Assembly (NCBI GenBank): GCA_041623575.1
Contig: JBFJWO010000001.1
Span: 1-51,995 of the forward strand
DNA length: 51,995 nt
Direction of reading: 5' to 3'
Source: Gammaproteobacteria bacterium
GTDB taxonomy: Bacteria > Pseudomonadota > Gammaproteobacteria > JAHELT01
Under the pieces are notes generated by a model. That model made no database searches. It was not told the origin of the DNA and worked only from the letters and a program-made list of their open reading frames with translations. Of the stretch, positions 1-29,458 are shown one piece after another (position 1 is the first letter of the stretch; every line of letters starts with the position of its first letter). A program made the position numbers and the translations under genes.

Positions 1-53
1 GCGTTTTTTGTTGCTCGAGGCTTGCGGGCTGCGAAGGCCCGCGTCGTCTGCCC

Positions 54-2363
54 GTGACCCTGGCGCGCACGACCGCCGGGCGCCTGCCGCTGCGACGTTG
101 GATCAAGGGCGCCGCTGTCGCCTTCGCGATCGGCGTCGTCGGCGTCGCGTTCATGGCCACGACCCCCGGCGACGACTTCGAACGCCGCTTCGGCCTGAGC
201 TGGCTGTTCGAGGTCCGCGGCCCGATCGACGCGCCGGACGATGTCGTGGTCGTCGCGATCGATGCCCGGACCGGCAGCCATCTCGACCTGCCCTCACTGC
301 CAAGGGAGTGGCCACGGTCCATCCACGCCCGCCTGATCCGCAACCTCGAGCGCCTGGGCGCGTCCGTGGTCGTGCTCGACATGGATTTCCAGCGCTCGCG
401 CTCGAGCGCCGAGGACGCCGAACTCGGTGCGGCCATCGAGCGCTCGGGGCGGGTCGTCCTGTTCGAGTCACTCGACGGGAAACGCCTGCCGCTGGGCCAG
501 CTCGGCAACCGGGCGTCCAACGTCGACGAGCAGACCTACGGTTCGGTCTGGGTGGAGCAGTTGATCCCCCCCGTGCCCGTGCTCGCCGAGGCTGCCAACG
601 CGCTGGGTCCGTTTCCGCTGCCGAAACTCAACGAGGCCGTCTACCAGTACTGGGCGTTCAAGGCGACCACCGACGATGCCGCCACGATGCCCGCGGCAGC
701 GCTGCAGCTGCACGCCCTGGATCATTACGAAGTGTTCGCGCGGCTGATGCGAGAGGCGAACATCGCCGAGCTGAAGGATCTCCCGCCGGACGCGCGATCC
801 CTTACGAGGGCGCGCCCGGTGAGCGCGGTCATGCGTACCCTGCGCCGCGCTCTGAAGGACAATCCGCAGGCCGTGGCACGGCTCACCGAAGCGCTGCACG
901 CGACCCGCGACGAACCGCTGTCGCCACGACAGCGGCAACTGATCACCGCCCTCGTCAACCTCTACGCCGGGCCGGACACCCGCTACCTGAATTTCTACGG
1001 GCCGCCCGGCAGCGTGCGGACCCTTCCCTATCACAAGGTCATCGCGGCCGACGAGGCGGGTGACGAGAGCCTGCCCGATCTCGCCGGAAAGATCGTCTTC
1101 GTGGGCTATTCCGACCTCTACGATCCCGGGCAGCCGGATCGGTTCTACACGGTGTTCACCAACGAGGACGGAGTGGACCTGAGCGGCGTGGAGATCGCGG
1201 CCACCGCGCTCGCCAATCTGCTGGACGATCGTGAGCTGCGCCCACCCGACGCCCCGACCTCGATCGCGATCGTGTTGGCTTTCGGCAGTCTTGTCGGCGC
1301 CCTGGTCTACCTGTTGCCGGCGCTGGTTTCCGTTCCTCTCGCGCTCGTCCTGGGCGTGTCCTATGGCGCGGGCGTACAGTACCTGTTCAACGTGGCCGAC
1401 TCGTGGTTGCCGCTCGCCACCCCGCTGCTGCTGCAGTTGCCGCTGGCGCTGTTCCTGGGCCTGCTCGCGCAGTACCTGTTCGAACGACGACAGGAGCGTC
1501 AGTTGACGCAGGCGATCAGCTACTACCTGCCGGGCAGTATCGTCGCCGACCTTACCCGGGCCGGTGGCGTGGATCCGGTCGGTCTCAATCGCTCGGTGCA
1601 CGCCACCTGTCTCGCCACCGACATGGCCGGTTTCACGGGTATCGCCGAGACCATGTCGCCGGAGCACCTGGCCGCGTTCATGAACGAGTACTTCGAAGCG
1701 CTGTCGGCGCCCCTGATCGAACACGGCGTCGACGTCACCGAGTTCCGGGCCGATGCCATCATGTGCGCGTGGACCGGCCTGCAGTCCGACGAGCAACTGC
1801 GTCGCGACGCGATTCTCGCGGCACTCGGCACGGTCGATGCCATCAACCGGTTCAGCGCCGAGACCGGGCGCGGCAACCTGTCGCCGCGCATCGGCCTGGA
1901 AACCGGCGAGGTGTTCGTCGGCCACGCCGGTGGGGGCGGCCATTTCGTCTACAGTATCGTCGGCGCCTGCGCGAACACCGCTTCACGCATCGAAGGCCTG
2001 AACAAGCAGCTCGGCACCCAGTTGCTGGCGAGCGAGGCGGTGGTCGAGGGATTCGACTGGCTGCTGTGCAGGCCTCTGGGATCGTTCCTACCGATCGGCA
2101 ACCAGGCTCCCGTCGCGGTGGTCGAGATCCTGGCGTTGGAAACCGCGGCGTCCGCCGCGCAGCGCAGGCTCTGCCGGCGTTTCGCGCGATCACTGACGTT
2201 GCTGCGCAACGGGCGCCGCAGGCTCGCGGCGGCGCTGCTCGACAGGATTCTGGACGAATTTCCCGATGACGGGCCGGCGCGGTTCTACCGCGAACGCTGC
2301 AGCGCGCAATGGGAGGAACGCCTGCGCCGGGACGGCTTCGTCATTCGCCTGGAGACCAAGTGA
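54..2363 (+). CDS. CHASE2 extracytoplasmic sensor domain fused to a class III adenylate/guanylate cyclase
   Basis: GTG-start ORF of 769 aa. One N-terminal TM helix, then a CHASE2-like region (VVVVAIDARTGS, REWPRSIHARLIRNLERLGASVVVLDMDF, IVFVGYSD). About three TM helices at aa 400-480. C-terminal class III cyclase core (CLATDMAGFTG, EFRADAIMCAW, GLETGEVFVGHAG, GACANTASRIEG). Confidence 0.9.
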   Translation: MTLARTTAGRLPLRRWIKGAAVAFAIGVVGVAFMATTPGDDFERRFGLSWLFEVRGPIDAPDDVVVVAIDARTGSHLDLPSLPREWPRSIHARLIRNLERLGASVVVLDMDFQRSRSSAEDAELGAAIERSGRVVLFESLDGKRLPLGQLGNRASNVDEQTYGSVWVEQLIPPVPVLAEAANALGPFPLPKLNEAVYQYWAFKATTDDAATMPAAALQLHALDHYEVFARLMREANIAELKDLPPDARSLTRARPVSAVMRTLRRALKDNPQAVARLTEALHATRDEPLSPRQRQLITALVNLYAGPDTRYLNFYGPPGSVRTLPYHKVIAADEAGDESLPDLAGKIVFVGYSDLYDPGQPDRFYTVFTNEDGVDLSGVEIAATALANLLDDRELRPPDAPTSIAIVLAFGSLVGALVYLLPALVSVPLALVLGVSYGAGVQYLFNVADSWLPLATPLLLQLPLALFLGLLAQYLFERRQERQLTQAISYYLPGSIVADLTRAGGVDPVGLNRSVHATCLATDMAGFTGIAETMSPEHLAAFMNEYFEALSAPLIEHGVDVTEFRADAIMCAWTGLQSDEQLRRDAILAALGTVDAINRFSAETGRGNLSPRIGLETGEVFVGHAGGGGHFVYSIVGACANTASRIEGLNKQLGTQLLASEAVVEGFDWLLCRPLGSFLPIGNQAPVAVVEILALETAASAAQRRLCRRFARSLTLLRNGRRRLAAALLDRILDEFPDDGPARFYRERCSAQWEERLRRDGFVIRLETK

Positions 2364-2469
2364 GCGCGGCAGCGACGGCGCGTGGTCGACGTGGAGTGTG
2401 GATTCGCAGTGAGAAACCGCGTACATTAGCCCGGGGCCTCTGCTAACAACATAACGACGAGGCAAGTTA

Positions 2470-5400
2470 ATGGAGCGTGCGGGTCGTTCGCGACCGGATC
2501 GCGCCCCGAGCAGGTTCGACAGAACGAGAAGACTGGCACGGACCGGCGTCTTGCTCGCCCCGCTGTACGTGCTCGCCGGCGCCTGTATTTCACCGATCGC
2601 CCTTGCCGAGGACTGCGAGCCCGTGGTCGGCGGGCTGGTCTCCGTCGAAGGCAAGGTCGAGGTCCGGCGCGCCAGCGCCGAGCGCTGGGAAGAGGCCGAC
2701 CTGCAGGAGGTCCTCTGTCAGGGTGACTCGGTGCGTGTCGGCGTCCACAGCCGAGCCGCTGTGGCGCTTATCAACGACGCCGTGCTGAGGATCGATCAAC
2801 GCACGACGTTGCAGTTGGTCGACATCGTCGAGCAACAGGCCGAACCCTCGCTGATCGAGCTCATCTTCGGCGCGTTTCAGACCTTCTTTCGCCAACCCCG
2901 CCTGCTCAGGGTCCACACCCCGTACCTGAACGGTTCGATCGAAGGTACGGAGTTCGTGCTGCGGGTGGTGGACGAGCAGGCCGTGCTGACCGTGCTCGAA
3001 GGGCGCGTGCTGGCGGAAAACGAGCACGGCAGTATCAGCGTCGGGCGCAACCAATCGGTGGCCGCCGAGGCGGGCTCGGCGCCGCAACCCCGTGTCGTGG
3101 TGCGCCCGCGCGAGGCGGCCCAGTGGGCGCTCTATTACCCGCCGCTGCTGGCGGCGCCCGGGGGCGCGCAGCGCCTCGGTTCCGGGCCTCTCGCCGATGC
3201 CTTGCGCGCCAACGACACCCCCGCTGCCCTTGCCGCACTCGAGAACGTTCCGCAGGCCGGGCGCGATGCCGGGTTCTTCGTCCTGCGGGCGGCTCTGTTG
3301 TTGTCGGTCGGCCGCGTCGAGGACGCCCGCGCCGACATCGATCGAGCCCTCGCGCGCGACGCCGGGGCGGGCCTTGCGTTCGCGCTACGCGCTGTTGTCG
3401 CGGTCGTGCAGAACGACCTCGAGCAGGCGCTGGCCGACGGCAATCGGGCGGTCGCTTCCAGCCCCGATTCGGCGGCGGCGCACATCGCGCTCTCCTACGC
3501 CCAACAGGGTGCATTCCAGATCCCGATGGCACGCGAGACGCTGCTTCGCGCGGTGCAGCTGCCGAGCGCGGACGCCCTCGCGTGGACACGGCTAGCCGAA
3601 CTCGAGCTGATGCTCGGGTTTCGCGAACGCGCCGTCGAAGCCGCGGAAAAAGCGGCCTCGCTCGCGCCCGGGCTGGCGCGCACGCAGAGCACGTTGGGTT
3701 TCATAAGGCTCGCCGAGTTCCGCACCGGCGACGCGCAAGCGGCGTTCGAGCGGGCTGTCGCGCTTGACTCGGCCGATCCCCTGGCGCATCTCGGACTGGG
3801 TCTGGCCAGGATCGGCGCGGGTGATCTCGCGCGAGGTCGGGCGGCCATCGAGATCGCGGTCGGCCTGGATGCCTCGAGTGCCTTGCTCCGGGCCTACCTC
3901 GGCAAGGCGTATTTCGAAGAGAAGCGCCCGCCGCTCGACGCCGAGCAGTTCGCCATGGCCAGGGATCTCGACCCTTTCGATCCGACCGCTTTCCTCTATG
4001 ACGGCATCCGCAACCAGACCGAGAACCGGCCGGTGCAGGCGGCGCGCGACATCGACACGTCGATCCGACTCAACGACAACCGCGCCGCCTACCGCGGACG
4101 TCTGCTGCTCGACCAGGACCGTGCGGCGCGCGGCACCAGCCTCGCCCGGGTGCACAAAGACCTCGGTTTCACGCAGCTCGGCATCGACGAGTCGACGCAC
4201 TCCCTTGCACTCGACCCTTCGAACGCGTCCGCGCACCGATTCCTTTCCGACAGCTATCGGGGTATGAGCCGGTTCGAGATCGCACGGGTCAGCGAACTCT
4301 TTCAGGCGCAGCTGCTGCAGGACAGCAACATCAATCCCGTGCAACCCAGCATCTCGGAGAGCAACCTCAATATCGTCGCGCTGGGCGGACCCGCGAGCGC
4401 GGCTTTCAACGAGTTCACGCCGTTGTTCCAGCGCAACGATACCCAGTTCAACGTTACCGCGGTGGGCGGCAGCGAGGGCACCGCCGGCGCCGAAGCGGTC
4501 GTTTCAGGCGTTGCCGACGATTTCTCCTACAGCTTCGGCGCCTTCGCTTACGAGACCGACGGCTGGCGGGCGAACAACGACCTGGAGCAGGACGTCTACA
4601 ACGTCTACCTGCAGGGCGCGATCGGCGCGCGATCGTACTGGCAGGCAGAGCTGATGCATCGCCGATCGCTGAGCGGCGACCTCGTGTTCGGCTTCGACCC
4701 GGACGACCTCGTCGACGATCGGCGGATCGACACCAGTCGATCCAGCGCGCGTGTCGGGTTTCGCCATTCGCCGGACCCCTCGTCGGACCTGCTCGTCTCG
4801 GTCATCCACAGCGAGCGCGACGAAACGCGCAGCGAGACGGATCAGATCGATCCCACGACGCTTTTTGCGGCCGATACCGAGCTGGAGACCGACGGTTCGC
4901 TGGTCGAGATCCAGGCCATACGCAAGGCCGAAAACAGCAACTACATTCTGGGCGCGGCGTACAGCGAGTCGGAAACGACGGGCAGTGACGTGACGGTCAT
5001 CTCCGACGTCGTCATCGGGCCGCTGTTCGAGTTCGACGAGCCCATCGACGAATCGATCGAGCACTCGCGTGCCTACGCCTATGCGAACATCGGGCAACGG
5101 CGCGGGCTCATCTGGACGCTGGGCGCCAGCTACGACGACCTCACGGACGAGCCGATCGAACGATCCGGCTTCAATCCCAAGCTCGGCGTGCGCTGGCTCG
5201 TCGACGACGAAGTGCAGTTGCGCGCGGCGGCGTTTCAGGTGCTCAAGCCGTCGTTGATCAACAATCGCACCATCGAGCCGACCCAGGTCGCCGGTTTCAA
5301 CCAGTTGTTCGACGATGCGACCGGGACCGAGGCGCGTACCCGCGGTATCGGAATCGACGTCGGGTCCGCGACGGACGTGGCGTGGGGGGCGGAGGCGACC

Positions 5401-5934
5401 TGGCGCGATCTCGACGTCCCGGTGGTGCTGGTGACCGAGGACGGCAAGGAGGAGGCGGGCGGCATCGAGCAGGACGAAGAACACCACCGGCTCTATCTCT
5501 ACCTGGCGGCGGGCGAGCAGGTCGCGCTCAGCGCGGAACTGGCCTACGACCGTTTCCGTGAGCCCTCGGCGAGCGCGGACGCGTTTCGCCCGGTGCCGGC
5601 CGAGGTCACCACCACCAGCGTGCCGCTGGGCGTGAGCTACTTTCGCCCGAACGGTCTGTTCGCGAGCCTGCGCGTTACCTATGTCGAGCAGCGGGTCGAG
5701 CGCGCGGCGGACGCGGTGTTCGCACAGGGCAAGGACAGTTTCTCCCTGGTCGACGTGGCGGTCGGATACCGCTTTGCGCAGCGCCGCGGTATCGCGAGCC
5801 TGGGCATCAAGAACCTGACCGACGAGGAATTCGAGTTCCTCGATGACAGTTTTCGCGAATTCAGCGAGGATGCGACCACCGGGCCGTACGCCCCCGAGCA
5901 GATGGTGCTCGGTCGCATTACGCTGAGTTTCTAG
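2470..5934 (+). CDS. Exported FecR-domain / TPR-repeat / C-terminal outer-membrane beta-barrel fusion protein
   Basis: ORF of 1154 aa with a signal-like N-terminus (RRLARTGVLLAPLYVLAGACISPIALA). FecR-type domain (VEGKVEVRRASAERWEEA..GDSVRVG..AAVALINDAVLRIDQRTTLQL..GTEFVLRV..QWALYYPP). Long Ala/Leu-rich TPR-like array at aa ~260-600. The C-terminal ~550 aa show alternating beta-strand patterning, a TonB-dependent-receptor-like tail (LGIKNLTDEEFEF) and a terminal Phe (GRITLSF). Confidence 0.8.
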   Translation: MERAGRSRPDRAPSRFDRTRRLARTGVLLAPLYVLAGACISPIALAEDCEPVVGGLVSVEGKVEVRRASAERWEEADLQEVLCQGDSVRVGVHSRAAVALINDAVLRIDQRTTLQLVDIVEQQAEPSLIELIFGAFQTFFRQPRLLRVHTPYLNGSIEGTEFVLRVVDEQAVLTVLEGRVLAENEHGSISVGRNQSVAAEAGSAPQPRVVVRPREAAQWALYYPPLLAAPGGAQRLGSGPLADALRANDTPAALAALENVPQAGRDAGFFVLRAALLLSVGRVEDARADIDRALARDAGAGLAFALRAVVAVVQNDLEQALADGNRAVASSPDSAAAHIALSYAQQGAFQIPMARETLLRAVQLPSADALAWTRLAELELMLGFRERAVEAAEKAASLAPGLARTQSTLGFIRLAEFRTGDAQAAFERAVALDSADPLAHLGLGLARIGAGDLARGRAAIEIAVGLDASSALLRAYLGKAYFEEKRPPLDAEQFAMARDLDPFDPTAFLYDGIRNQTENRPVQAARDIDTSIRLNDNRAAYRGRLLLDQDRAARGTSLARVHKDLGFTQLGIDESTHSLALDPSNASAHRFLSDSYRGMSRFEIARVSELFQAQLLQDSNINPVQPSISESNLNIVALGGPASAAFNEFTPLFQRNDTQFNVTAVGGSEGTAGAEAVVSGVADDFSYSFGAFAYETDGWRANNDLEQDVYNVYLQGAIGARSYWQAELMHRRSLSGDLVFGFDPDDLVDDRRIDTSRSSARVGFRHSPDPSSDLLVSVIHSERDETRSETDQIDPTTLFAADTELETDGSLVEIQAIRKAENSNYILGAAYSESETTGSDVTVISDVVIGPLFEFDEPIDESIEHSRAYAYANIGQRRGLIWTLGASYDDLTDEPIERSGFNPKLGVRWLVDDEVQLRAAAFQVLKPSLINNRTIEPTQVAGFNQLFDDATGTEARTRGIGIDVGSATDVAWGAEATWRDLDVPVVLVTEDGKEEAGGIEQDEEHHRLYLYLAAGEQVALSAELAYDRFREPSASADAFRPVPAEVTTTSVPLGVSYFRPNGLFASLRVTYVEQRVERAADAVFAQGKDSFSLVDVAVGYRFAQRRGIASLGIKNLTDEEFEFLDDSFREFSEDATTGPYAPEQMVLGRITLSF

Positions 5935-5957
5935 CTCGATGTGGAGGAGTACGACTC

Positions 5958-6797
5958 ATGACTACAAGAACAACGTATACCGGTGCCCTGCTGTGTTTCG
6001 CCCCGCTGGCGTTTGGCCTCGCGCTGCCGGCGAACGCGGACTGCATCGACAGCGATCCGCCGGCGCTCGCGGTCATGTCGATCGATGCCAACAACAGTTG
6101 TTCCGACATCAACGGTTACGGCGGGTGTTTCATCAACGACGGGATCGGCAGTTGCTCGTTCAGCAGCGGTGGCAAATCGTTCACCGTCGACAGCACGCAG
6201 GCGGCTGACGGGCGGGTGCTGTGGAGCGTGCGCGAGGGCAGCGATCTCGGCGTCAAGGTGATGGTCGCCAACGGCGGCGCGCAGGGCAAGAACAACTGTA
6301 GCTACACCTACGCTTTCGATACGTTCTCGGGCCAGGCCGGCGACCTCAAGCCCAACGGCAGCATCCAGAACATCACCGGGGCGTTCTTCTGCACCGACGG
6401 CTCGTTCGCGGCGCCGCCGCCCCCGCCGCCGGTCGCCGAGAACCTGCCCCTGTGCCAGGACCCGATCTCGCAGCCTGACGTCGGGTTTCTCGACGAGACC
6501 GGCATCCGCTGCCCCGCGCCCGATCCGGCGACCGGGCTGGTGCCGCCGGTGGTCGTGTGCAACCTCGAGAAAGACAAGCCCGACTGGGGCGCGACCGACG
6601 GATCGGGGCTGTGCTGTCAGTGCGGGATTCCCGAGGGAACCCAGACCTCGTGCTTCGTGACCCCCGACTCGCCCGAGTGCACGCGGGAGATGACGGTCGA
6701 CCCCACCCAGGCCGTCGAGTTGATGTTCTTCAGGGCCGACGGCGACCCGTGCACCTGGAAGCGTACGTCGCGGGGATGGGAGCAGATCTGCTGGTAG
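5958..6797 (+). CDS. Secreted cysteine-rich protein of unknown function
   Basis: GGAGGA RBS about 8 nt upstream of the ATG, 24 nt after the previous stop. Signal peptide (ALLCFAPLAFGLALPANA/DC). About 16 Cys in the mature part, a PPPPPP linker, and a C-terminal CCQC cluster. Codon usage matches the neighbours. Confidence 0.7.
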   Translation: MTTRTTYTGALLCFAPLAFGLALPANADCIDSDPPALAVMSIDANNSCSDINGYGGCFINDGIGSCSFSSGGKSFTVDSTQAADGRVLWSVREGSDLGVKVMVANGGAQGKNNCSYTYAFDTFSGQAGDLKPNGSIQNITGAFFCTDGSFAAPPPPPPVAENLPLCQDPISQPDVGFLDETGIRCPAPDPATGLVPPVVVCNLEKDKPDWGATDGSGLCCQCGIPEGTQTSCFVTPDSPECTREMTVDPTQAVELMFFRADGDPCTWKRTSRGWEQICW

Positions 6798-6866
6798 TTC
6801 GTTTTCCCGGATGGCGGTCAGCCCGGGCGCACAGGCGCGCGGGCCGGCCGGTTCGTCCGGCTCGGA

Positions 6867-8150
6867 TCAGGGGTAGTCGCGCTGGCTCTCGCCGGTGTAC
6901 AGCTGCCGCGGGCGGCCGATACGCAGTTCCGGGTCCTGCATCATCTCCATCCAGTGCGCGATCCATCCGACCGTGCGCGCCATCGCGAAAATCACCGTGA
7001 ACATGCTGAGCGGGATGCCCATCGCGCGCAGGATCACGCCCGAGTAGAAATCGACGTTCGGGTAGAGCTTGCGCTCGATGAAGTAGTCGTCCTCGAGCGC
7101 CACCTGCTCGAGCTTGCGTGCCAGCTCGAACAGCGGCTGGTTCTCCGCACCCAGTTCGTCGAGCAGGCCGTTGGCGACCTGGCGGATGATGCGCGCGCGC
7201 GGGTCGTAGTTCTTGTACACCCGGTGGCCGAATCCCATCAGCCGGAAAGTGTCGTTCTTGTCCTTGGCACGCGCGATGTACTTGTCCAGCGGTTCGCCCG
7301 ACGCCAGCATGTTCTCGAGCATGCGGATCACCGCCTCGTTGGCACCGCCGTGCGAGGGGCCCCACAGCGAGGCGATGCCGGCGGCGATGCTGGCGAACGG
7401 GTTGGCACCCGAGCTGCTCGCCAGGCGTACGGTCGAGGTGCTGGCGTTCTGCTCGTGGTCGGCGTGCAGGATGAGGATGATCTCAAGCGCGCGCACGAAA
7501 GTCGGGTTCGACTGGTAGCTCTCCGCGGGCACGGCGAACATCATGCGCAGGAAGTTCTCCACGTAGCCGAGCGCGTTCAGCGGGTAGATGAACGGCTGCC
7601 CCAGCGAGTACTTGTAGCTGTCGGCGGCGATGGTCGGCATCTTGGCGATCAGGCGGTGCGCGGAGATCTTGCGGTGTTCCGGGTTGGTGATGTCGGTGGA
7701 GTCGTGATAGAAGGCCGACAACGCCCCCACCGTGCTCACCAGGATGGCCATGGGGTGGGCGTCGTGACGAAACCCCTCGTAAAAGCGACGCACGCCCTCG
7801 TGGACCATGGTGTGGGTGGAAATGGTGCGCTCGAAATCCTCTTTTTCCTTCGGGTTCGGCAACTCGCCGTAGAGCAACAGATAACACACTTCCAGGTAGC
7901 TGCTCTTCTCGGCGAGCTGTTCGATCGGGTAGCCGCGGTAGAGCAGGATGCCCTGATCGCCGTCGATGTAGGTGATGGCGCTGCTGCAGCTCGCGGTGGC
8001 GACGAACCCCGGGTCGTAAGTGAAGTAGCCCAGCTCCGGGTTGAGGCGGCGAATGTCGAAACAGGGATCGCCGTGGGTGCCTTCACGCACGGGCAACTGG
8101 ATCTTCTTGCCCGTGGTGTCATCGATCACCGTGACGGTCTTGTCAGTCAT
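6867..8150 (-). CDS. gltA: Citrate synthase (type II, hexameric Gram-negative type)
   Basis: Full-length 427 aa with an unmistakable GltA sequence ([82 protein letters not shown]). Confidence 0.97.
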
Positions 8151-8360
8151 CTATCGTCTCCTGAGAAGTCGGTAGCGGGGGTCTGGCGGGGGGCGGCGTC
8201 AGCCGCAGGCTGCGGTCCCTGCCACGCTGAAAAGGTGGTCGCGAAAGAATACCCGATGGCTGGAGTCAACGCATCAGTTCGCATTTTCGGCTTGTGCATC
8301 AACAAGGTAGCGGCGCGGCCGGCGAAAGGTTTACGGCAGGGTTTGCCTGCAAGGGTTTTG

Positions 8361-8380
8361 TACTGTATATATAGCCAGTA
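8361..8380 (+). promoter_or_regulatory. LexA (SOS) box 1, TACTGTATATATAGCCAGTA
   Basis: Matches the gammaproteobacterial consensus TACTG(TA)5CAGTA / CTG-N10-CAG. The box ends 33 nt (starts 53 nt) upstream of the lexA ATG. Confidence 0.85.
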
Positions 8381-8398
8381 CTGTATATAAAACCAGAC
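8379..8398 (+). promoter_or_regulatory. LexA (SOS) box 2, TACTGTATATAAAACCAGAC
   Basis: Second CTG-N10-CAG element. It overlaps box 1 by 2 nt and ends 15 nt before the lexA ATG. Confidence 0.8.
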
Positions 8399-8413
8399 AA
8401 GCGAAACCGCCCG

Positions 8414-9016
8414 ATGCAAGAACTGACCCCCAGACAGCAGGAAATCCTCGCCCACATCCGCGACTACCTGGAGCGCAACGGCGTACCGCCCACCCGTGCC
8501 GAGCTGGCGCGGGCGATCGGGGTACGCTCGGCCAACGCCGCCGAGGAGCATTTGCGGGCCCTGGCGCGCAAGGGCGCCATCGAACTCATGCCGGGCACTT
8601 CCCGCGGTATCCGTCTGGTCGCCGAAAGCGGGCTGGCGGTGATCGGCCGGGTGGCGGCGGGTGCTCCGGTGCTGGCGGAGCAGAACATCGAGCAGTACCT
8701 GGCGGTGGAAGGGCAGGTATTCCGCCCCCGGGCTCACTACCTGCTGCGCGTGCACGGCATGAGCATGCGCGATGCGGGAATCCTGGACGGCGACCTGCTG
8801 GCGGTGCACCACTCGCCCGAGGCCCGCAACGGCCAGATCGTGGTTGCGCGCATCGAGGACGAGGTGACCGTGAAGCGGTTCGAGCGCCAGGGCGGGCACC
8901 GGGTGCTGTTGCATCCGGAGAACCCCGAATTCGACGTCATCGAGGTCGATCTGCGCGCCCGGGCGCTGCACATCGAAGGGATCGGCGTGGGCGTGGTGCG
9001 CAACCATGTCGCTTGA
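8414..9016 (+). CDS. lexA: LexA repressor / S24 autopeptidase
   Basis: 200 aa. Winged-HTH N-terminus ([29 protein letters not shown]), Ala-Gly cleavage site (GRVAAGAP), catalytic Ser ([10 protein letters not shown]) and Lys (VTVKRF). Confidence 0.95.
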
Positions 9017-9650
9017 TGCCCTGTTGCACAGCCGCCAGTTGTGGCGAGGCGGCGAGCTGTCTGCCCCGGTCCCGGCCATCCCCACCGGCTTTCGCGAACT
9101 GGATGCCTTGCTGCCGGGCGGCGGCTGGCCGGACAGCGGCCTGGTGGAACTGTTGCCGGCGCGCGCCGGAATCGGCGAGTTGCGGCTGCTGATGCCGGTG
9201 CTGGCCCGGCTCAGCCGCGCCGAGCGCTGGATCGCCTGGGTAGCGCCGCCTTACCTGCCTTACGCGCCCGCCCTGGCGGCCGCCGGGGTGGAACTGTCCC
9301 GCATCCTGATGATCCACCCGCGCGGCGCCCAGGACGGCCTGTGGGCGCTGGAGCAGGCGTTGCGGGCGGGGACCTGCGGCGCGGTCCTGGCCTGGCCCGA
9401 GGTCCTCGACGGGCGGGCCATGCGGCGTCTGCAACTGGCGGCCGAGGCCGGCAACAGCCTGGGCTTCCTGTTCCGCTCGACCAGGGTCTCGCGCCAGCCT
9501 TCCACCGCGCAGTTGCGCCTGCAACTCGACGGCATTGCCGAGGGCGGCGAGGACGCCCGCCATCTCTGCGTGGACATCCTCAAGCGTCGCGGCGGCTGGC
9601 CGGTCGGGCCGGTCACCGTGGCATTCAGGCAGGGCGCCCGGGCGCACTGA
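9006..9650 (+). CDS. imuA: ImuA, RecA/SulA-like translesion-synthesis cassette protein
   Basis: 214 aa. Typical ImuA N-terminus ([32 protein letters not shown]). Overlaps the lexA stop by 11 nt and lies upstream of imuB-dnaE2. Confidence 0.85.
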
Positions 9651-9683
9651 GCCGAAGGTGCCTGGCGTCGCGGAGAAAACGGC

Positions 9684-10151
9684 ATGCCTGCGCGATTCCT
9701 CAACGCAACGGTGATCCTGCCGGCCCACGACCTGCCCGCTACCGCCCGTTATTACCGGGAGAAACTCGGGTTCTCGATCGAGATCCTCTGGGAGGACCCG
9801 CCCTACGGGGTGGCGGTGCGCGGGCAGGCGGTGATCGAGTTCGGCCAGCAACGGTTTCCGGATACCGCCAGGGGCGTGTGTTACGTCCACGTCGGCGACG
9901 TCGACGAAGTCTACCGGGAGTTCGCCGAGGCGGGCGCGCACTTCGTCACGGCGCCTGCCGACCGTGCTTACGGCTGCCGGGATTTCCGGGTCCGGGACAA
10001 CAACGGCAACCTGCTGATCGTCGGCAGCCCGTTGCCCGGCAGCCCCCTGTCGGAGGGCGTCATCGCAGCCCTTCCCGATACACGGGAGCGTCAGGGCGAG
10101 GATCGTGCCGGGCCGCCCGACGCCGGTGCCCGGCGGCCGGACTGCCGTTGA
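9684..10151 (+). CDS. VOC-family (glyoxalase / bleomycin-resistance-like) protein
   Basis: 155 aa. Resembles the bleomycin-resistance/glyoxalase fold (ATVILPAHDLPATARYYREKLGF..VAVRGQAVIEF..CYVHVGDVDEVYREF..DRAYGCRDFRVRDNNGNLLIVG). The C-terminal ~35 aa are low complexity. Confidence 0.75.
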   Translation: MPARFLNATVILPAHDLPATARYYREKLGFSIEILWEDPPYGVAVRGQAVIEFGQQRFPDTARGVCYVHVGDVDEVYREFAEAGAHFVTAPADRAYGCRDFRVRDNNGNLLIVGSPLPGSPLSEGVIAALPDTRERQGEDRAGPPDAGARRPDCR

Positions 10152-10178
10152 GCCGCGTGTCGCTCCGCCGCTCTGCCC

Positions 10179-11612
10179 ATGCTCTGGTTGTGCCTGCATT
10201 TCCCCCTGTTGCCGCTGGAGGTGCTGGCGCGCGCCGGGCAGGCCGGCCCGGCAGTGGTGAGCGCCGAGAGCGGCGGGCGCGAACGGGTAGAGGTCTGCAA
10301 CGAGGCCGCCGCCCGCCTCGGGGTGTGCCCGGGCCTGCGCATGAGTTCGGTCTGGGCACTGGCGCCGGAGTCGACGCACTACCCGCGTAACAGTGCGCGT
10401 GAGGCGCGAGCCCTGACCCGCCTGGCCGCCTGGTGCGGCCAGTTCAGCGACTTCGTCAGCCTGCGCGCGCCCGATGCGGTGTTGCTGGAGGTGCGGGGCA
10501 GTCTGAGGCTGTTCGGCGGGTTGGCGCGGCTGCTGGCGCTGCTGGACGGGGCGATCGCGGAACTGGGCTACACCGCGCAGCGGGGCGTGGCACCGACCCC
10601 GCTGGCGGCCAGCCTGCTGGCGCGTGCCGGGGGCGGGATCGCCAGCGGCACGGGCTGGGAGGGGCAACTGGCGAAGATCCCGCTCGACCGACTGGAACAG
10701 CCGCCCGCCGTGCTCGAGGCATTGCAGGAAATGGGGATCGGTACCGTCGGCGCCTGTCGTCGCCTGCCGCGCTCCGGGCTGGCGCAGCGTTTCGGTCCCT
10801 CGCTGCTGCAGTACCTCGATCGCCTGTGCGGGCTCGCCGCCCACCCGGTAGCGCGCTTCGAGGCGCCGGCCCGTTATGCCGAGCGGATTGCGCTGCCGGC
10901 CGAGAGCACCTCCGTGCAGGCGCTGGGGTTCGCCTTGCGGCGGCTGATTTTCGAGTTCTGCGGCATCCTCACCGGGCACGCCTCCGGCGTGCAGACCTTC
11001 GAGGTGGAACTGGTCCACGAACGCGTGGCCGCGACCCTGCTCGGGTTCGCCCTGGTATCGCCCAGCCGCGACCCGGCGCACCTGCTGATGCTGGTGCGTG
11101 AGAAGCTCGAACGCACCACGCTGGACGCGCCGGTGGTCGAGGTCGGGCTGCGCGCCGGGCGCTTCGAGTCGCTGCTGGCGGCGAGCGAAGACCTGTTCGA
11201 CGCACGCGGCGCGGCCCACGACGGCCTGTTCCTCGATCGCCTGCGCGTACGCCTCGGCGGCGAGGCCGTGGGCAGTGTGCGCTGTTTCGCCGAGCACCGC
11301 CCGGAGTACGCCTGGGGCAAGGCCGACCCGGATGCCTCGCGCACCGCGCAGGTCCCCGCTTACCCGGTCCGCCTGGAGCGACCCTTGTGGCTGCTGTCGC
11401 AACCTCTCGCGCTGGCCACCCGCGACGGGCTGCCCTGCTACGAAGGCGAGCTGGTCCTCTACGACGGCCCGGAGCGCATCGAGAGCGGGTGGTGGGACGG
11501 GCGCGACGTGACCCGCGACTACTTTCTCGCCGGCAACGCGCAGGGTGCGAGTTTCTGGGTGTTCCAGGAACTGCGCCGGCGCGAATGGTTCCTGCACGGG
11601 ATCTTTGCCTGA
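10179..11612 (+). CDS. imuB: ImuB, Y-family DNA polymerase-like protein of the mutagenesis cassette
   Basis: 477 aa. Canonical ImuB start (MLWLCLHFPLLPLEVL). Sits immediately upstream of dnaE2. Confidence 0.85.
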   Translation: MLWLCLHFPLLPLEVLARAGQAGPAVVSAESGGRERVEVCNEAAARLGVCPGLRMSSVWALAPESTHYPRNSAREARALTRLAAWCGQFSDFVSLRAPDAVLLEVRGSLRLFGGLARLLALLDGAIAELGYTAQRGVAPTPLAASLLARAGGGIASGTGWEGQLAKIPLDRLEQPPAVLEALQEMGIGTVGACRRLPRSGLAQRFGPSLLQYLDRLCGLAAHPVARFEAPARYAERIALPAESTSVQALGFALRRLIFEFCGILTGHASGVQTFEVELVHERVAATLLGFALVSPSRDPAHLLMLVREKLERTTLDAPVVEVGLRAGRFESLLAASEDLFDARGAAHDGLFLDRLRVRLGGEAVGSVRCFAEHRPEYAWGKADPDASRTAQVPAYPVRLERPLWLLSQPLALATRDGLPCYEGELVLYDGPERIESGWWDGRDVTRDYFLAGNAQGASFWVFQELRRREWFLHGIFA

Positions 11613-11628
11613 CCTTGCCCCGGCCGCG

Positions 11629-14600
11629 ATGGAACTCCCGGACTACGCCGAGCTGCACGCCGTTTCGAACTTCACCTTCCTGCGTGGCGCCTCGCACCCC
11701 GAGGAACTGGTGAAGCGCGCCGGTGCGCTCGGCTACCGGGCGTTCGCGCTCACCGACGAATGCTCGCTGGCGGGTATAGTGCGCGCGCACACCGCGGCGC
11801 GCGACTGCGGCCTGCACCTGATCGTCGGCACCGAGCTGGTGTTCGAGCCCGGACTGCGGCTGGTGTTGCTGGCGGTCAATCGCCACGGCTACGGGCGGAT
11901 AGCGTCGCTCATCACACGTGCCCGGCGCGCGGCCGCCAAGGGCGCTTATCGCCTGTGCCGCGAGGACCTGTGCAATGCCCCCGGAGAGCTGGCCGATTGC
12001 CTGGTCCTGTGGCTGCCCGGCGATCCCGCCGACGTCGCCACCGGGCGCTGGCTCGCGCAGGCCTTTGGCGGGCGTGTGTGGCTCGCCGTGGAGCTGACGC
12101 GCGACGGCACGGAGCGCCGGCGCCTGGCCGTGCTCACCCGTCTCGGCGGGAAATGCTCGCTGCCGCTGGTGGCGGCCGGCGACGTGCACATGCACCGCCG
12201 CGGCCGGCGTGCCGTGCAGGACACGCTGACGGCGATCCGCCTCAAGTCCACGGTGGCGGCGGCCGGCCTCGCGTTGCACGCCAACGGCGAGCGTCACCTG
12301 CGCGCCCGCGATTACCTTGCCCGGCTCTACCCACCGGAGCTGCTGGCGGAGACCGTGCGCGTGGCCGCCCGTTGTACGTTCTCGCTCGAGGAGTTGCGCT
12401 ACGAGTATCCCGCCGAGCTGGTGCCCGCCGGCAAGACCCCCGGCGGCTGGTTGCGGGAGTTGACCCTGGCCGGCGCCCGCCGCCGCTGGCCCGGAGGTGT
12501 GCCGCCGCGGGTCGAGGCGCAGCTGCAGCACGAACTGGCGCTGATCGGCGAGCTGGCTTACGAGCCCTATTTCCTGACTGTGCACGACCTCGTGGCCTTC
12601 GCCCGCGCGCACGACATCCTCTGCCAGGGCCGCGGCTCGGCGGCCAACTCGGCGGTGTGTTACTGCCTCGGGATCACCGAGGTCGACCCCTCGCGCATGA
12701 GCCTGCTGTTCGAGCGGTTCGTGTCGCGCGAGCGCAACGAGCCTCCCGACATCGACGTGGATTTCGAGCACGCCCGGCGCGAGGAAGTCATCCAGTACGT
12801 CTATCGCAAGTACGGGCGCGAGCGCGCTGCCCTGGCTGCCACGGTGATCACCTACCGCCTGCGCAGCGCCGTGCGTGACACCGGCAAGGCGCTGGGCCTG
12901 TCGCTGGAGCAGGTCGACCGCCTGGCCAAGAACCTGGCCTGGTGGGACGGGCGCCGGGTCGACGAGGAGCGCCTGCGCGAGTGCGGGCTGGACCCGGGCA
13001 GCCCGCTGGTGCAGCGGGTGGTGAGCCTCGCCACCCAGCTGGTCGGCTTCCCGCGCCACCTCTCGCAGCACGTCGGCGGTTTCGTGATCTCCCGCGGCCC
13101 GTTGAGCGAGCTGGTGCCGATCGAAAACGCCGCCATGCCCGAGCGCACCGTCATCCAGTGGGACAAGGACGACCTCGACGCGCTCGGCCTGCTGAAAGTC
13201 GACTGCCTGGCGCTCGGCATGCTGAACGCCATCCACAAGGCCTTCGACCTGCTCGGCGAAGTGCGCGGGCAGGCGTACAGCCTGGCGAGCATCCCGCCCG
13301 AGGACCCGCAGGTGTACGCCATGATCCAGAAAGCCGACACGGTGGGCGTGTTCCAGATCGAGTCGCGGGCGCAGATGTCGATGTTGCCGCGGCTCAGGCC
13401 GGAGAACTTCTACGACCTCGTGATCGAAGTGGCCATCGTGCGTCCCGGCCCCATCCAGGGCGACATGGTGCATCCCTACCTGCGCCGCCGCCAGGGCCTG
13501 GAGCCCGTCGACTACCCCAGCGAGGAGGTCCGCGAGGTCCTGGAGCGGACCCTGGGCGTGCCGATCTTCCAGGAGCAGGTGATCAAGCTGGCGATGGTCG
13601 CGGCCGGCTTCAGCCCCGGCGAGGCCGACCGGCTGCGCCGATCCATGGCGGCCTGGCGGCGCAACGGCGAGCTTGCGCAATTCGAGCAGCGCCTCATCGA
13701 CGGCATGCGCCGGCGCGGCTACGGGGTCGAGTTCGCCGAGCGGATCTTCCGCCAGATCCAGGGGTTCGGCGAGTACGGTTTTCCCGAGTCGCACGCCGCC
13801 AGCTTCGCGCTGCTGGTGTACGTCTCGGCCTGGCTGAAGTGCCACGAGCCGGCGGCCTTCACCTGTGCGCTGCTCAATGCCCAGCCCATGGGGTTCTATG
13901 CCCCGGCGCAACTGGTGCAGGACGCGCGCCGTCACGGCGTCGAGGTGCTCGCCGTGGACGTCACTCACAGTCGCTGGGAGAGCAGCCTGGAGCCGCGTGG
14001 TGGAGCCCAACCGGCGTTGCGCCTGGGGCTGGACCGGGTCAAGGGACTGTCGCGGGAGGCCGGCGAGCGGGTCTTGCGGGCCCGCTCCGGCGCGCCGTTT
14101 CGCGACCTGAACGATCTCGCGGCGCGCGCCGGTCTGCGCCGCAACGACCTGGCCGCGCTGGCCAATGCCGATGCTTTCTCCGCGCTCTCCGGCCACCGCC
14201 ACCAGGCGCGCTGGGAGCTGGCGGGGGTGGAGCCGCCCGCGGGGCTGTTGCCCACGCCGGCACCGGGTGGCGAGGCACCGGTGGCCTTACGCCTGCCGAG
14301 CGAGGGCGAGGAGGTGGCCGCGGACTACGCCCATCTCGGCCTGACCTTGCGGCGCCACCCGTTGGCGCTGCTGCGCCCGCGCTTCGACAGGGTCCACACG
14401 GCCGCGGGGCTCTGGGATCTCGCTGACGGCGCGCGCGCCGAGACCGTGGGGCTGGTCACCTGTCGCCAGCGCCCGGGTACCGCCACCGGCGTATTGTTCC
14501 TGACGCTCGAGGACGAGACCGGGGTGATCAACGTGATCGTGTGGAACCGGGTCGCCGAGCGTTACCGGCGGGCGGTGCTGGCCGCGAGCCTGCTCGGCGT

Positions 14601-14712
14601 GCGCGGGCACGTTCAGCGCGAAGGGGACGTGTTGCACGTGGTCGCACGCCATCTCCGGGACCACACCGCGGAGCTCGGCGGCCTCACCGCCGCCTCGCGG
14701 GATTTTCACTGA
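11629..14712 (+). CDS. dnaE2: Error-prone DNA polymerase III alpha-like subunit DnaE2 (ImuC)
   Basis: An in-frame ATG at 11629 gives the canonical DnaE2 start (MELPDYAELHAVSNFTFLRGASHPEEL). PHP and Pol III alpha core motifs are present (GRGSAANSAVCYCLGIT, DIDVDFE, FQIESRAQ). The tracked ORF start at 11545 overlaps imuB and is probably an artefactual extension. Confidence 0.93.
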   Translation: MELPDYAELHAVSNFTFLRGASHPEELVKRAGALGYRAFALTDECSLAGIVRAHTAARDCGLHLIVGTELVFEPGLRLVLLAVNRHGYGRIASLITRARRAAAKGAYRLCREDLCNAPGELADCLVLWLPGDPADVATGRWLAQAFGGRVWLAVELTRDGTERRRLAVLTRLGGKCSLPLVAAGDVHMHRRGRRAVQDTLTAIRLKSTVAAAGLALHANGERHLRARDYLARLYPPELLAETVRVAARCTFSLEELRYEYPAELVPAGKTPGGWLRELTLAGARRRWPGGVPPRVEAQLQHELALIGELAYEPYFLTVHDLVAFARAHDILCQGRGSAANSAVCYCLGITEVDPSRMSLLFERFVSRERNEPPDIDVDFEHARREEVIQYVYRKYGRERAALAATVITYRLRSAVRDTGKALGLSLEQVDRLAKNLAWWDGRRVDEERLRECGLDPGSPLVQRVVSLATQLVGFPRHLSQHVGGFVISRGPLSELVPIENAAMPERTVIQWDKDDLDALGLLKVDCLALGMLNAIHKAFDLLGEVRGQAYSLASIPPEDPQVYAMIQKADTVGVFQIESRAQMSMLPRLRPENFYDLVIEVAIVRPGPIQGDMVHPYLRRRQGLEPVDYPSEEVREVLERTLGVPIFQEQVIKLAMVAAGFSPGEADRLRRSMAAWRRNGELAQFEQRLIDGMRRRGYGVEFAERIFRQIQGFGEYGFPESHAASFALLVYVSAWLKCHEPAAFTCALLNAQPMGFYAPAQLVQDARRHGVEVLAVDVTHSRWESSLEPRGGAQPALRLGLDRVKGLSREAGERVLRARSGAPFRDLNDLAARAGLRRNDLAALANADAFSALSGHRHQARWELAGVEPPAGLLPTPAPGGEAPVALRLPSEGEEVAADYAHLGLTLRRHPLALLRPRFDRVHTAAGLWDLADGARAETVGLVTCRQRPGTATGVLFLTLEDETGVINVIVWNRVAERYRRAVLAASLLGVRGHVQREGDVLHVVARHLRDHTAELGGLTAASRDFH

Positions 14713-27975: not shown

Positions 27976-29391
27976 TTATCCCGCAGTGGGCGTCGATAAC
28001 AACCACAAGCCGAACACCGTGTAGCCGATCATCAGCGCCATCGCGGGCAACTGCATCGCGAGGCGCCGTGTGTCGCCCGGCGCTTCGCGCAGGTAGCGGG
28101 CGTGGGCGACGACCACCGCGCACAGGTGCGCCACCACGATCGCCGCGGTCTGGACCTTCCACAAAAGTGCCACCGAGGCGTGATGGGTGAGCAGCGAGGT
28201 CGTGACCGCGAAGTCGGCGGTGGAGAACAGGTCCCAGCCGCGCCCGAAAGGATCGGACACCGCGCGCAGCGCGTACTGGGCGTCCACCAGGAAGGCCGGC
28301 AGGTAGTGCGCGAAGTGATAGCCGACCGCGATCGGCACCAGCGACAGGACGAAGCTGCCGTAGCCCTGGCCCGGCGGGCGTCCGGCGAGCGCGTTGCCCG
28401 CGGCCGATGCCGCCGCGCAGGCCAGCACGAACACGGCGAAAGCCGCCGCCAGGCCGAGCGTCGCCGGCACCACGAGCGCGCTGCGCCCCGGGTACTCCAG
28501 CGGGTTCTCGCCGAGCAGGCCGAGCCAGGTGAAGGAGCGGGAGAAGCCGTCGAAGGACACGGTGGCGAGCGCCATCAGCACGAACGCCGCGCCGCTCGCG
28601 GAAAGCGGGCGGCGGCGCAACAGCCGGGCCCCGGGCCAGTGCCAGGCCAGGCGGGCACCGGCGTGACCGATCGGCGCCAGCCAGGACACGAGGGTGAAGA
28701 ACACCTGGAAGGCTTCGCCGTGGCGAAGCCAGGTACGGGGCCCGAACAGCACCATTCCCGCCAGTGTGATACCGGCGTAGGACAGCACCGCGACGGCGAG
28801 TCGCGCCGGGTCCTGCGGTGCCGGGTAGACGAGCTCGAACCAGGCGAAAGCGGCGAACAGTCCGACGGCGGGCCAGCAGCCGAGTGCGCGCGGGTAGGGC
28901 AGCAGCGCTCGCGGCCGCCGCCCGACGCTCGCCAGGCGGTGCAGGGCCGGGAACGGGCTCAGCACGGACCACAGGTTGCCGAGCAGCGCGTGGGCGAAGG
29001 TCAGGCCGATCCACCACCACGACCAGAGCAGGGTCGGCAAGGGGTTGGCGAGCGGATCGCGAGGCCCGGCGAACCCGGCGGCGACCAGCACCGCCAGCAC
29101 CGCCAGCACGATCCGGCCGGGCCAGGCACCGAGGTCGCGCCAGCGCACCCCGGTCGGGCGCGGGCGCGCCGCGCCTCGCGGCCAGCGGGCGGGCAGCACC
29201 GCGAGCAGGACAAACGACAACGCCACGACGAGCGCGCCGCCGACGATGTACTCGCGCGTCGGCAGCAGCAGGACGAAGGCACGCTGACCCGTATGAGCGC
29301 ACGATGGCGTTGCGAAGCCTGCTCCCGCCAGCGCCGCGAGGGTGCACGCGAGGCGCGCGCCGGCGCGCCTTGTCCTGACGTTTACAGCCAT
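27976..29391 (-). CDS. Polytopic inner-membrane protein of unknown function
   Basis: Start placed at the internal ATG 29391 (MAVNVRTRRAGARLACTLAALAGAGFA). About 10-12 hydrophobic segments. Same strand as pncA and 36 nt upstream of it. Confidence 0.6.
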   Translation of the reverse strand: MAVNVRTRRAGARLACTLAALAGAGFATPSCAHTGQRAFVLLLPTREYIVGGALVVALSFVLLAVLPARWPRGAARPRPTGVRWRDLGAWPGRIVLAVLAVLVAAGFAGPRDPLANPLPTLLWSWWWIGLTFAHALLGNLWSVLSPFPALHRLASVGRRPRALLPYPRALGCWPAVGLFAAFAWFELVYPAPQDPARLAVAVLSYAGITLAGMVLFGPRTWLRHGEAFQVFFTLVSWLAPIGHAGARLAWHWPGARLLRRRPLSASGAAFVLMALATVSFDGFSRSFTWLGLLGENPLEYPGRSALVVPATLGLAAAFAVFVLACAAASAAGNALAGRPPGQGYGSFVLSLVPIAVGYHFAHYLPAFLVDAQYALRAVSDPFGRGWDLFSTADFAVTTSLLTHHASVALLWKVQTAAIVVAHLCAVVVAHARYLREAPGDTRRLAMQLPAMALMIGYTVFGLWLLSTPTAG

Positions 29392-29458
29392 GCTATAGGT
29401 AGCCGCCCAAAAGGTAGCCGCACCGGTCACGCGGCGCTCGCCCGAGGAGGGAGACATA

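Follow-up and report, generated by a model that had tools for sequence, protein, structure and literature searches.

A probable NsrA/CyaK-type trans-envelope signalling locus in a gammaproteobacterium: a CHASE2 cyclase, a FecR/TPR/beta-barrel protein and a Cys-rich exported protein

The subject of this analysis is a group of three genes at the beginning of a 51,995-nucleotide stretch of DNA (contig JBFJWO010000001.1 of assembly GCA_041623575.1, Gammaproteobacteria bacterium, lineage JAHELT01), which at its full length is referred to as the window. Gene 1 encodes a class III nucleotide cyclase with a CHASE2 sensor, gene 2 an exported protein in which a FecR domain, TPR repeats and an outer-membrane barrel are joined, and gene 3 a Cys-rich secreted protein. 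The locus is probably a trans-envelope signalling module of the type represented by NsrA and CyaK of Sinorhizobium meliloti. The genes and the elements between them are as follows.

Positions 54 to 2363, forward strand: gene 1, open reading frame (ORF) of 769 amino acids with a GTG start.
Positions 2364 to 2469, forward strand: spacer of 106 nt between genes 1 and 2, with GAGG about 8 nt ahead of the gene-2 ATG.
Positions 2470 to 5934, forward strand: gene 2, ORF of 1154 amino acids.
Positions 5943 to 5949, forward strand: Shine-Dalgarno sequence GGAGGAG of gene 3, 8 nt ahead of its ATG.
Positions 5958 to 6797, forward strand: gene 3, ORF of 279 amino acids.

The three genes are co-directional, and the gap between genes 2 and 3 comprises 23 nt. 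The preliminary description of this DNA, made from the letters alone, had listed three packed co-directional ORFs with gaps of 106 and 23 nt and a strong ribosome-binding site ahead of the third; the coordinates and the GGAGGAG motif agree with it. Neither a convincing terminator nor a sigma-70 promoter was recognized in the 106-nt spacer by sequence scan. Since a promoter and terminator scan of positions 1-8500 returned no promoter-like sites, and terminator-like sites only at background level, the case for co-transcription is made by spacing and conservation. The gene-1 reading frame is free of stop codons up to the 5' edge of the window (positions 1-53), and the promoter and any upstream neighbours therefore lie outside the view; the start at position 54 is backed by the N-terminal alignment of gene 1 with its homologues.

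Two observations concern the same edge. The exact 769-residue product of gene 1 is absent from the protein collection searched, while the products of genes 2 and 3 are present in it, so the public gene-1 call probably uses a different start or is partial. Any upstream regulator, for example a Crp gene such as that of the related locus L002, would fall off this contig.

The product of gene 1 matches the Pfam families CHASE2 (E 4e-27, residues 41-416) and Guanylate_cyc (E 1e-10), in agreement with the inner-membrane CHASE2 cyclase proposed earlier. According to hydropathy and Pfam, it consists of a first transmembrane helix (residues 16-39), a periplasmic CHASE2 domain (about 41-398), three transmembrane helices (399-476), a cyclase domain in the cytoplasm (about 517-690) and, at the C-terminus, a short TPR-like tail. 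This is the layout of CHASE2 sensors, in which an N-terminal transmembrane helix is followed by CHASE2, by further transmembrane helices and then by a cytoplasmic output domain. The identity of gene 1 to the cyclases that adjoin gene-2 homologues is 42-53%, and to CyaK 34% over the catalytic domain; relative to CyaK, its CHASE2 domain carries a large insertion. To our knowledge, CHASE2 is among the commonest extracytoplasmic sensor domains of bacteria, and we know of no small-molecule ligand for it. The catalytic domain occupies the following positions.

Positions 1602 to 2120, forward strand: catalytic domain of gene 1, with the key residues D523, E563, D567, S634, N641 and R645.

The organization of gene 2 was derived from Pfam, hydropathy and an AlphaFold2 (AF2) model, which was built with 39 homologues and has a mean predicted local distance difference test score (pLDDT) of 75.6. 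Pfam recognizes FecR (E 5e-9, residues 86-180), several TPR families and TonB_dep_Rec_b-barrel (E 2e-11, residues 686-1116). The parts of the protein are given below.

Positions 2470 to 2610, forward strand: export signal (residues 1-47), a basic stretch and a hydrophobic helix at 22-47 by hydropathy; in AF2 a helix at 15-38 with low pLDDT.
Positions 2614 to 3099, forward strand: FecR-type beta domain (residues 49-210), all-beta at 52-208 in AF2, aligned with the FecR domain of NsrA.
Positions 3121 to 4317, forward strand: TPR-like alpha-solenoid (residues 218-616) of about 24 helices (AF2, Pfam TPR families).
Positions 4318 to 4437, forward strand: linker (residues 617-656), the most conserved part of the family (0.85), with 13 of its 40 residues invariant.
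Positions 4438 to 5934, forward strand: C-terminal outer-membrane beta-barrel (residues 657-1154) of 22 strands (AF2, 657-1153).

The export signal is the least conserved part of the gene-2 family (0.22), with a likely cleavage site after ALA. The FecR-type domain that follows, with two invariant cysteines (C49 and C83), has a predicted periplasmic location and is a candidate for contact with CHASE2. Among the sequences of the PDB nothing significant was found for it (best E 0.14). The solenoid matches the TPR domain of OGT (1w3b) in Foldseek, and its conservation climbs from 0.62 to 0.80 towards the barrel, the value of 0.80 being reached at residues 521-616. Within the linker, residues 626-653 have a pLDDT below 50 in the AF2 model and form the sole internal segment of gene 2 longer than 25 residues with so low a score. 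The combination of the highest conservation with such a pLDDT suggests that the linker needs a complex, or the inside of the barrel, in order to fold, which makes it a candidate interaction or lumen-filling element.

The barrel is modelled with a pLDDT (means of 10-residue blocks) of mostly about 79-95, falling to 52-73 in the last approximately 50 residues. In a Foldseek search of the PDB, gene 2 matched the TonB-dependent transporters FecA, FhuA and FptA (E 5e-15 to 2e-14, probability 1.0), FecA 1kmp being the top match (E 5e-15). The C-terminal residue, F1154, is nearly invariant in the family, and outer-membrane proteins typically end in Phe. Within the barrel, variability is highest at the strand tips (about 781-870 and 981-1000). 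The fusion of FecR, TPR and an outer-membrane-type barrel in one exported protein of 1154 residues, as described earlier, is thus borne out by Pfam, the 22-strand model and Foldseek; the possibility raised with it, that the protein has no barrel and is soluble in the periplasm, is contradicted by AF2 and Foldseek.

Such a barrel could also belong to a TonB-type nutrient-uptake channel, with a cyclase sensing the imported substrate via CHASE2. Both Pfam and Foldseek group it with TonB-dependent transporters, FecA on top, and 22 strands fit a transporter of this class. The N-terminal plug, however, is absent. The Plug domain (PF07715) gave no match at E up to 0.1, and residues 1-656 are taken up by the signal peptide, FecR, TPR and linker. 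A TonB box and an N-terminal signalling domain are likewise missing, with FecR and TPR filling the N-terminal 650 residues; tonB/exbBD or ABC importer genes do not adjoin gene 2 in the window, and the S. meliloti homologue functions in signal perception (PMC7529298). Gene 2 was therefore rejected as a TonB-dependent transporter, and uptake is a very improbable explanation of the locus.

The homologue in question is NsrA. When plasmids were searched by tblastn, gene 2 as query yielded a match on Sinorhizobium pSymB at the annotated nsrA (1200 aa), which is located directly upstream of cyaK. By Pfam, NsrA contains FecR and TPRs, and CyaK contains CHASE2 and Guanylate_cyc. The similarity of gene 2 to NsrA is collinear: BLASTP aligns the FecR/TPR half with E 5e-19 and the barrel end with E 5e-4, and hhalign of the gene-2 family profile against NsrA gave 99.85% probability (E 1.5e-30) over 1005 columns spanning both proteins. 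A beta-barrel is predicted in NsrA at residues 600-1200 (PMC7529298). NsrA is an outer-membrane receptor which, together with CyaK (or CyaD1/D2), is required for the cyclic AMP (cAMP) response to the ribosomal protein uL2 (PMC7529298, PMC13001267).

Thus the two systems share an outer-membrane protein of about 1150-1200 residues (signal peptide, FecR, TPRs, barrel) that stands beside a CHASE2 class III cyclase. According to PMC7529298 and PMC13001267, which cite Garnerone 2018 (J Bacteriol 200:e00019-18), NsrA is genetically required if an external protein signal is to activate CyaK and CyaD1/D2. In S. meliloti, the NsrA-CyaK system controls secondary infection via cAMP and Clr. Differences include the gene order, which is reversed on pSymB, where nsrA precedes cyaK, and the host, since the window belongs to a high-GC bacterium with gammaproteobacterial nearest relatives and not to a rhizobial symbiont.

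Related pairings are found in other groups. In Campylobacterota, CHASE2/FecR-protein clusters include an adenylate cyclase, a phosphodiesterase, a FecR protein of the outer membrane together with a TPR protein (PMC9239204); in Burkholderiales and Pseudomonas, a CHASE2 histidine kinase is clustered with a LysM-FecR protein (PMC5192318). A CHASE2 sensor is recurrently paired with a FecR-domain envelope protein in these clusters, as in the window, whereas FecR, TPR and any barrel reside there on separate proteins or are joined with LysM, a histidine kinase may provide the output, and a Cys-rich protein is not reported. The earlier statement that no characterised system was known to be wired in this way is therefore wrong: gene 2 is the collinear homologue of NsrA, which adjoins the CHASE2 cyclase CyaK, and FecR-protein/CHASE2 clusters were already noted in Campylobacterota and Burkholderiales. 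Of the trans-envelope relay that had been proposed, the domains, the barrel and the co-conservation hold and the logic is the best reading; the wiring as such is not novel, having its precedent in NsrA-CyaK.

The preliminary description had likened the logic of the locus to FecA-FecR-FecI. The common elements are a 22-strand FecA-like barrel, a FecR-family periplasmic domain and an outer-membrane event relayed to the cytoplasm. In contrast to that system, gene 2 unites the barrel and the FecR domain in one polypeptide; the module lacks a plug, an N-terminal signalling domain and an anti-sigma domain, has no extracytoplasmic-function (ECF) sigma factor nearby, and its output is a cyclic nucleotide. 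The 8 kb downstream of the module encode (Pfam) gltA (convergent), lexA, an imuA-like gene, imuB and dnaE2. As had been said of the neighbourhood before, no sigma or anti-sigma gene is present in this segment; the upstream side is off the contig. FecA/FecR cell-surface signalling was considered as an identity of the module and rejected on these grounds, and also because gene 2 has a cleavable export signal and not an anti-sigma N-domain.

The linkage of gene 2 to a CHASE2 cyclase is widespread. More than 2575 relatives of gene 2 were found in a word-indexed protein search, and its best 120 matches have 92-99% query coverage and 50-62% identity. According to a scan with one genome per species, at least 520 genomes encode such relatives; the carriers include Gamma-, Alpha- and Betaproteobacteria, Desulfobacterota, Nitrospirota, Rokubacteria, Binatia and Brocadia. 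Linkage was counted in the 79 best loci, in which all six-frame ORFs were searched with profiles built in this analysis. A CHASE2 ORF occurs in 58 of the 79 loci, at a distance of no more than 1 kb from the gene-2 homologue in 45. It is located upstream on the same strand in 33 loci, downstream on the same strand in 12, and is divergent or convergent in 13. The 21 loci devoid of a CHASE2 ORF have mostly truncated flanks; approximately five (L018, L051, L056, L065 and L084) have none despite more than 5 kb on both sides. Named carriers of gene-2 homologues are Methyloversatilis sp. (L022), Thiocapsa sp. KS1 (L025) and Nitrosospira, the last with two loci that have no linked cyclase.

The preliminary description had made its proposal depend on co-conservation in related genomes. 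With a CHASE2 ORF in 58/79 loci and gene 3, where present, always 3' of gene 2, the neighbourhood is conserved, and because the adjacency recurs in most related loci it is far beyond chance. That three unrelated genes stand together by accident could be argued from the operon status, which is drawn from spacing and conservation, and from the 106-nt gap, which could hold a promoter. Nevertheless, the adjacency persists in Proteobacteria, Desulfobacterota, Nitrospirota, Rokubacteria and Brocadia, even where the order of the genes has been rearranged. Chance adjacency is thus effectively refuted by the neighbourhood statistics, and its probability is negligible.

ORFs with a domain binding cyclic nucleotide monophosphates (cNMP), including Crp-type regulators, are present in 29 of the 79 loci. 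A transporter of the MMPL/RND type with a C-terminal cNMP-binding domain adjoins the module in L002 (13041-15794, reverse strand), L009 and L014; this fusion could possibly be a direct effector of the cyclase. In locus L038 (Desulfosarcina variabilis), tandem NsrA-like paralogues (4484-7909 and 9926-13405) follow a single CHASE2 cyclase.

Gene 3 encodes 17 Cys residues, one belonging to the signal peptide and 16 to the mature part, which matches the secreted protein of 279 residues with about 16 cysteines described earlier; 14 of them are invariant among 21 homologues. Its signal peptide (residues 1-27) is followed by a beta-rich N-domain (about 28-150) and, beyond a Pro6 linker (153-158), by a Cys-rich C-domain (166-279) that carries a CCxC motif. 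In the AF2 model the N-domain is composed mostly of beta strands (pLDDT 83-97). No significant match to gene 3 was obtained in Pfam (searched also with all 21 members), NCBIfam or a PDB profile search, and the best Foldseek result for the AF2 model had E 0.23, with a TM-score of at most 0.19. In gene 3 (6770-6797) and in nearly all of its homologues, a short beta-hairpin at the C-terminus is followed by a final W, Y or F; the aromatic terminus recalls the C-terminal signals of outer-membrane proteins, though gene 3 is not a barrel.

The family of gene 3 is small and fast-evolving. An index of 5.8 billion sequences contained 21 matches, and a HMMER pass over 1.84 billion representatives gave 66 (E up to 1e-3). 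Gene 3 is situated directly 3' of the gene-2 homologue in every locus examined (L002/3, L004/5, L006, L034, L064, L087/88 and L089) and likewise in three more loci (L090-92) from an independent metagenome scan; L087 has the gene order and gene sizes of the window (769, 1155 and 299 aa). The gene-3 profile found zero matches at other positions among the 8004 ORFs of all loci. Divergent members are frequent as well. Profile iteration and single-linkage by phmmer brought 18 of the 79 species loci into the family. In 30 of the 79 loci the gene-3 position is occupied by a Cys-rich ORF (200-400 aa, 10 Cys or more); 67 of the 79 have a flank long enough to reveal one. Its divergence is faster than that of its neighbours: at 50-58% identity of gene 2, the identity of gene 3 ranges from 54% down to undetectable. 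Gene 3 is accessory to the module and not its core, because NsrA functions in S. meliloti with no such neighbour. It is also the truly uncharacterised element of the module.

Genes 2 and 3 could instead be an export or surface-display pair (two-partner or SusC/SusD-like), in which the barrel would carry the Cys-rich protein across or hold it at the cell surface, and which the cyclase only regulates or monitors. Such a pair would account for the position of gene 3, always directly 3' of the barrel gene and provided with a strong ribosome-binding site, for its secreted, disulfide-rich and fast-evolving product with a Pro-rich spacer and an aromatic C-terminus, and for the plug-less barrel. Yet many gene-2 homologues, NsrA included, keep the CHASE2 cyclase and have no gene-3-like neighbour. 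POTRA, two-partner secretion and lipobox features were not found by Pfam and NCBIfam searches of the module proteins, and the conserved FecR/TPR arm would be left unexplained. An export pair is accordingly considered unlikely.

The nucleotide synthesized by gene 1 can be predicted from its active site. The closest solved structure to the catalytic domain is Cya2 of Synechocystis (2w01, E 4e-15), a natively CHASE2-linked guanylate cyclase (PMC5995499, PMC6005667). D523, D567, N641 and R645 align with Cya2 D448, D492, N569 and R573, so the class III metal and transition-state residues are intact; E563 corresponds to E488 and S634 to G562. In the hexad of gene 1, D523 and D567 bind metal, the E563-S634 pair specifies the base, and N641 and R645 contact ribose and phosphate (roles according to PMC6005667, Table 1, and PMC5995499). 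Guanylate cyclases have a Glu-Cys/Ser pair (eukaryotic) or Glu-Gly (Cya2), and adenylate cyclases have Lys-Asp/Thr (PMC6005667). E563 and S634 thus fit the pattern of guanylate cyclases, in which the base-specifying pair starts with Glu and its second member is small or polar (Cys, Ser or Gly) (PMC6005667, PMC5995499). The Lys of adenylate cyclases is missing; gene 1 has Glu563 where CyaK has Lys, the hexads being DEDSNR in gene 1 and DKDSNR (Lys-Ser pair) in CyaK; the wiring is untouched by this difference. A single substitution, E488K, turns Cya2 into an adenylate cyclase (PMC5995499), and the engineered Lys is seen in 6fht at the position of Cya2 E488 in the same structure-match output.

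Cya2 (Sll0646 of Synechocystis PCC 6803) shares with gene 1 the CHASE2-transmembrane-cyclase architecture, the Glu at the base-specifying position and the intact Asp/Asp/Asn/Arg set. Its second specificity residue is Gly where gene 1 has Ser, and an NsrA-like partner is not described in the Cya2 literature consulted.

Base-specifying pairs were compiled for 56 CHASE2 cyclases linked to gene-2 homologues, with a pair alignment profile built from four sequences only, so that assignments of Arg are provisional. The pairs are Glu-Ser in 20 of the 56, Asp-Arg in 13 (in one of these Ser takes the place of the Asn), Asn-Arg in 5, Lys-Thr in 4, Glu-Gly in 2 and Lys-Ser in 1; the Asp-Arg and Asn-Arg types predominate in the branch of Desulfobacterota and Nitrospirota. 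With Lys pairs in only 5 of 56, canonical adenylate-cyclase signatures are, as judged from these alignments, a minority among NsrA-linked cyclases. Because the Glu-Ser pair replaces the adenylate-cyclase Lys, cyclic GMP (cGMP) is somewhat favoured as the predicted product of gene 1.

With the module otherwise as described, gene 1 could nevertheless be an adenylate cyclase that makes cAMP like CyaK, the Glu-Ser pair conferring no specificity for GTP. The only characterised relatives, CyaK and CyaD1/D2, make cAMP (PMC7529298), and some class III enzymes are promiscuous (PMC6005667). Moreover, the closest loci bearing gene 3 (L002, L034 and L064) have Lys-Thr cyclases, and enzymes of the adenylate-cyclase type therefore work with the same sensor. 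On the other hand, the adenine-reading Lys is replaced by Glu at the very position where the E488K change alone switches Cya2 from guanylate to adenylate cyclase (PMC5995499), and the recurrence of Glu-Ser in 20/56 linked cyclases argues for selection and not decay. Production of cAMP is a possibility to be taken seriously, though it is not the expected outcome.

For the NsrA/CyaK-type module, the following sequence of events could be envisaged. Gene 2 would be the outer-membrane sensor, its plug-less barrel turned outward with the variable strand tips, and its TPR solenoid and FecR-type domain placed in the periplasm. An extracellular cue, probably macromolecular, would bind to the barrel on its variable outer side. 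The conserved linker and the TPR/FecR arm could then change, contact CHASE2 and pass the signal across the periplasm. In the resting state the catalytic domain of gene 1 would be kept inactive by the periplasmic CHASE2 domain, up to the moment at which the sensor signals; an inhibitory role of CHASE2 is suggested by the constitutive cAMP production of the paralogue CyaD1 once CHASE2 is removed (PMC5498481). Release of the inhibition would switch on cyclic-nucleotide synthesis in the cytoplasm, the product being most likely cGMP. The cNMP could probably be read by the Crp-type or other cNMP-binding effectors that are present beside the module in many relatives. Gene 3 may provide the sensor with an accessory subunit that is exported and disulfide-rich (co-receptor, cap or lumen partner), co-evolves with the sensor and diverges faster.

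Several points weigh against this reading. Gene 2 is only about 24% identical to NsrA, the Cys-rich third gene is lacking in S. meliloti, and CyaK is a cyclase of the Lys (adenylate) type where gene 1 has Glu. No physical contact of NsrA with CHASE2 is demonstrated in the NsrA-CyaK literature consulted. In addition, a plug-less barrel of 22 strands requires closure by some element, the C-domain of gene 3 is poorly modelled by AF2, and both the location of gene 3 and its contact with gene 2 are presumed. The specificity of class III cyclases is not always predictable from two residues, and we know of no assay of a CHASE2 cyclase with a Glu-Ser pair. A phmmer search of the 52-kb window with three neighbours of related loci as queries found no cNMP-binding gene, and the module of the window organism is known from its sequence and from models.

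The NsrA-CyaK wiring, genetically known from one rhizobium, is now found across several phyla. What is new in comparison with NsrA-CyaK is the conserved Cys-rich third component, an exported protein that appears to be part of the module in many Proteobacteria, and the active site of the guanylate-cyclase type. This locus and the hundreds like it support gating of CHASE2 by a FecR-domain envelope partner and not by a diffusible ligand. They bear on cGMP signalling in bacteria and on the ways in which outer-membrane events could reach inner-membrane enzymes in the absence of TonB or sigma factors. Concrete entry points are offered by the question of which nucleotide the cyclase makes, by the contact between FecR and CHASE2 and by what gene 3 does.

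A further extension is speculative and judged rather doubtful: the loci may constitute a widespread unrecognised bacterial cGMP pathway with its receptor in the outer membrane, in which the NsrA-like sensor acts, by way of its FecR-type domain, as the physiological 'ligand' of CHASE2 and the gene-3 family is a new class of co-receptor, hypervariable and disulfide-rich, in or on the plug-less barrel that chooses the sensed extracellular macromolecule. If so, the orphan status of CHASE2 would be resolved as gating by a protein partner, and most NsrA-linked cyclases (with Glu-Ser, Asp-Arg and Asn-Arg pairs) would make nucleotides other than cAMP.

Other features were observed outside the module. 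An Rfam search of the whole window gave zero matches. According to Pfam, the downstream genes lexA, imuA-like, imuB and dnaE2 form an SOS mutagenesis cassette at 8414-14712. Just upstream of lexA, at 8360-8396, there are two tandem copies of the 18-bp unit GTACTGTATATAAAACCA, which look like paired LexA boxes. Farther along the window, at 28001-30000, a strong AT-skew excursion of +0.279 lies within a stretch of 72% GC, with short tandem repeats at 29085-29156.

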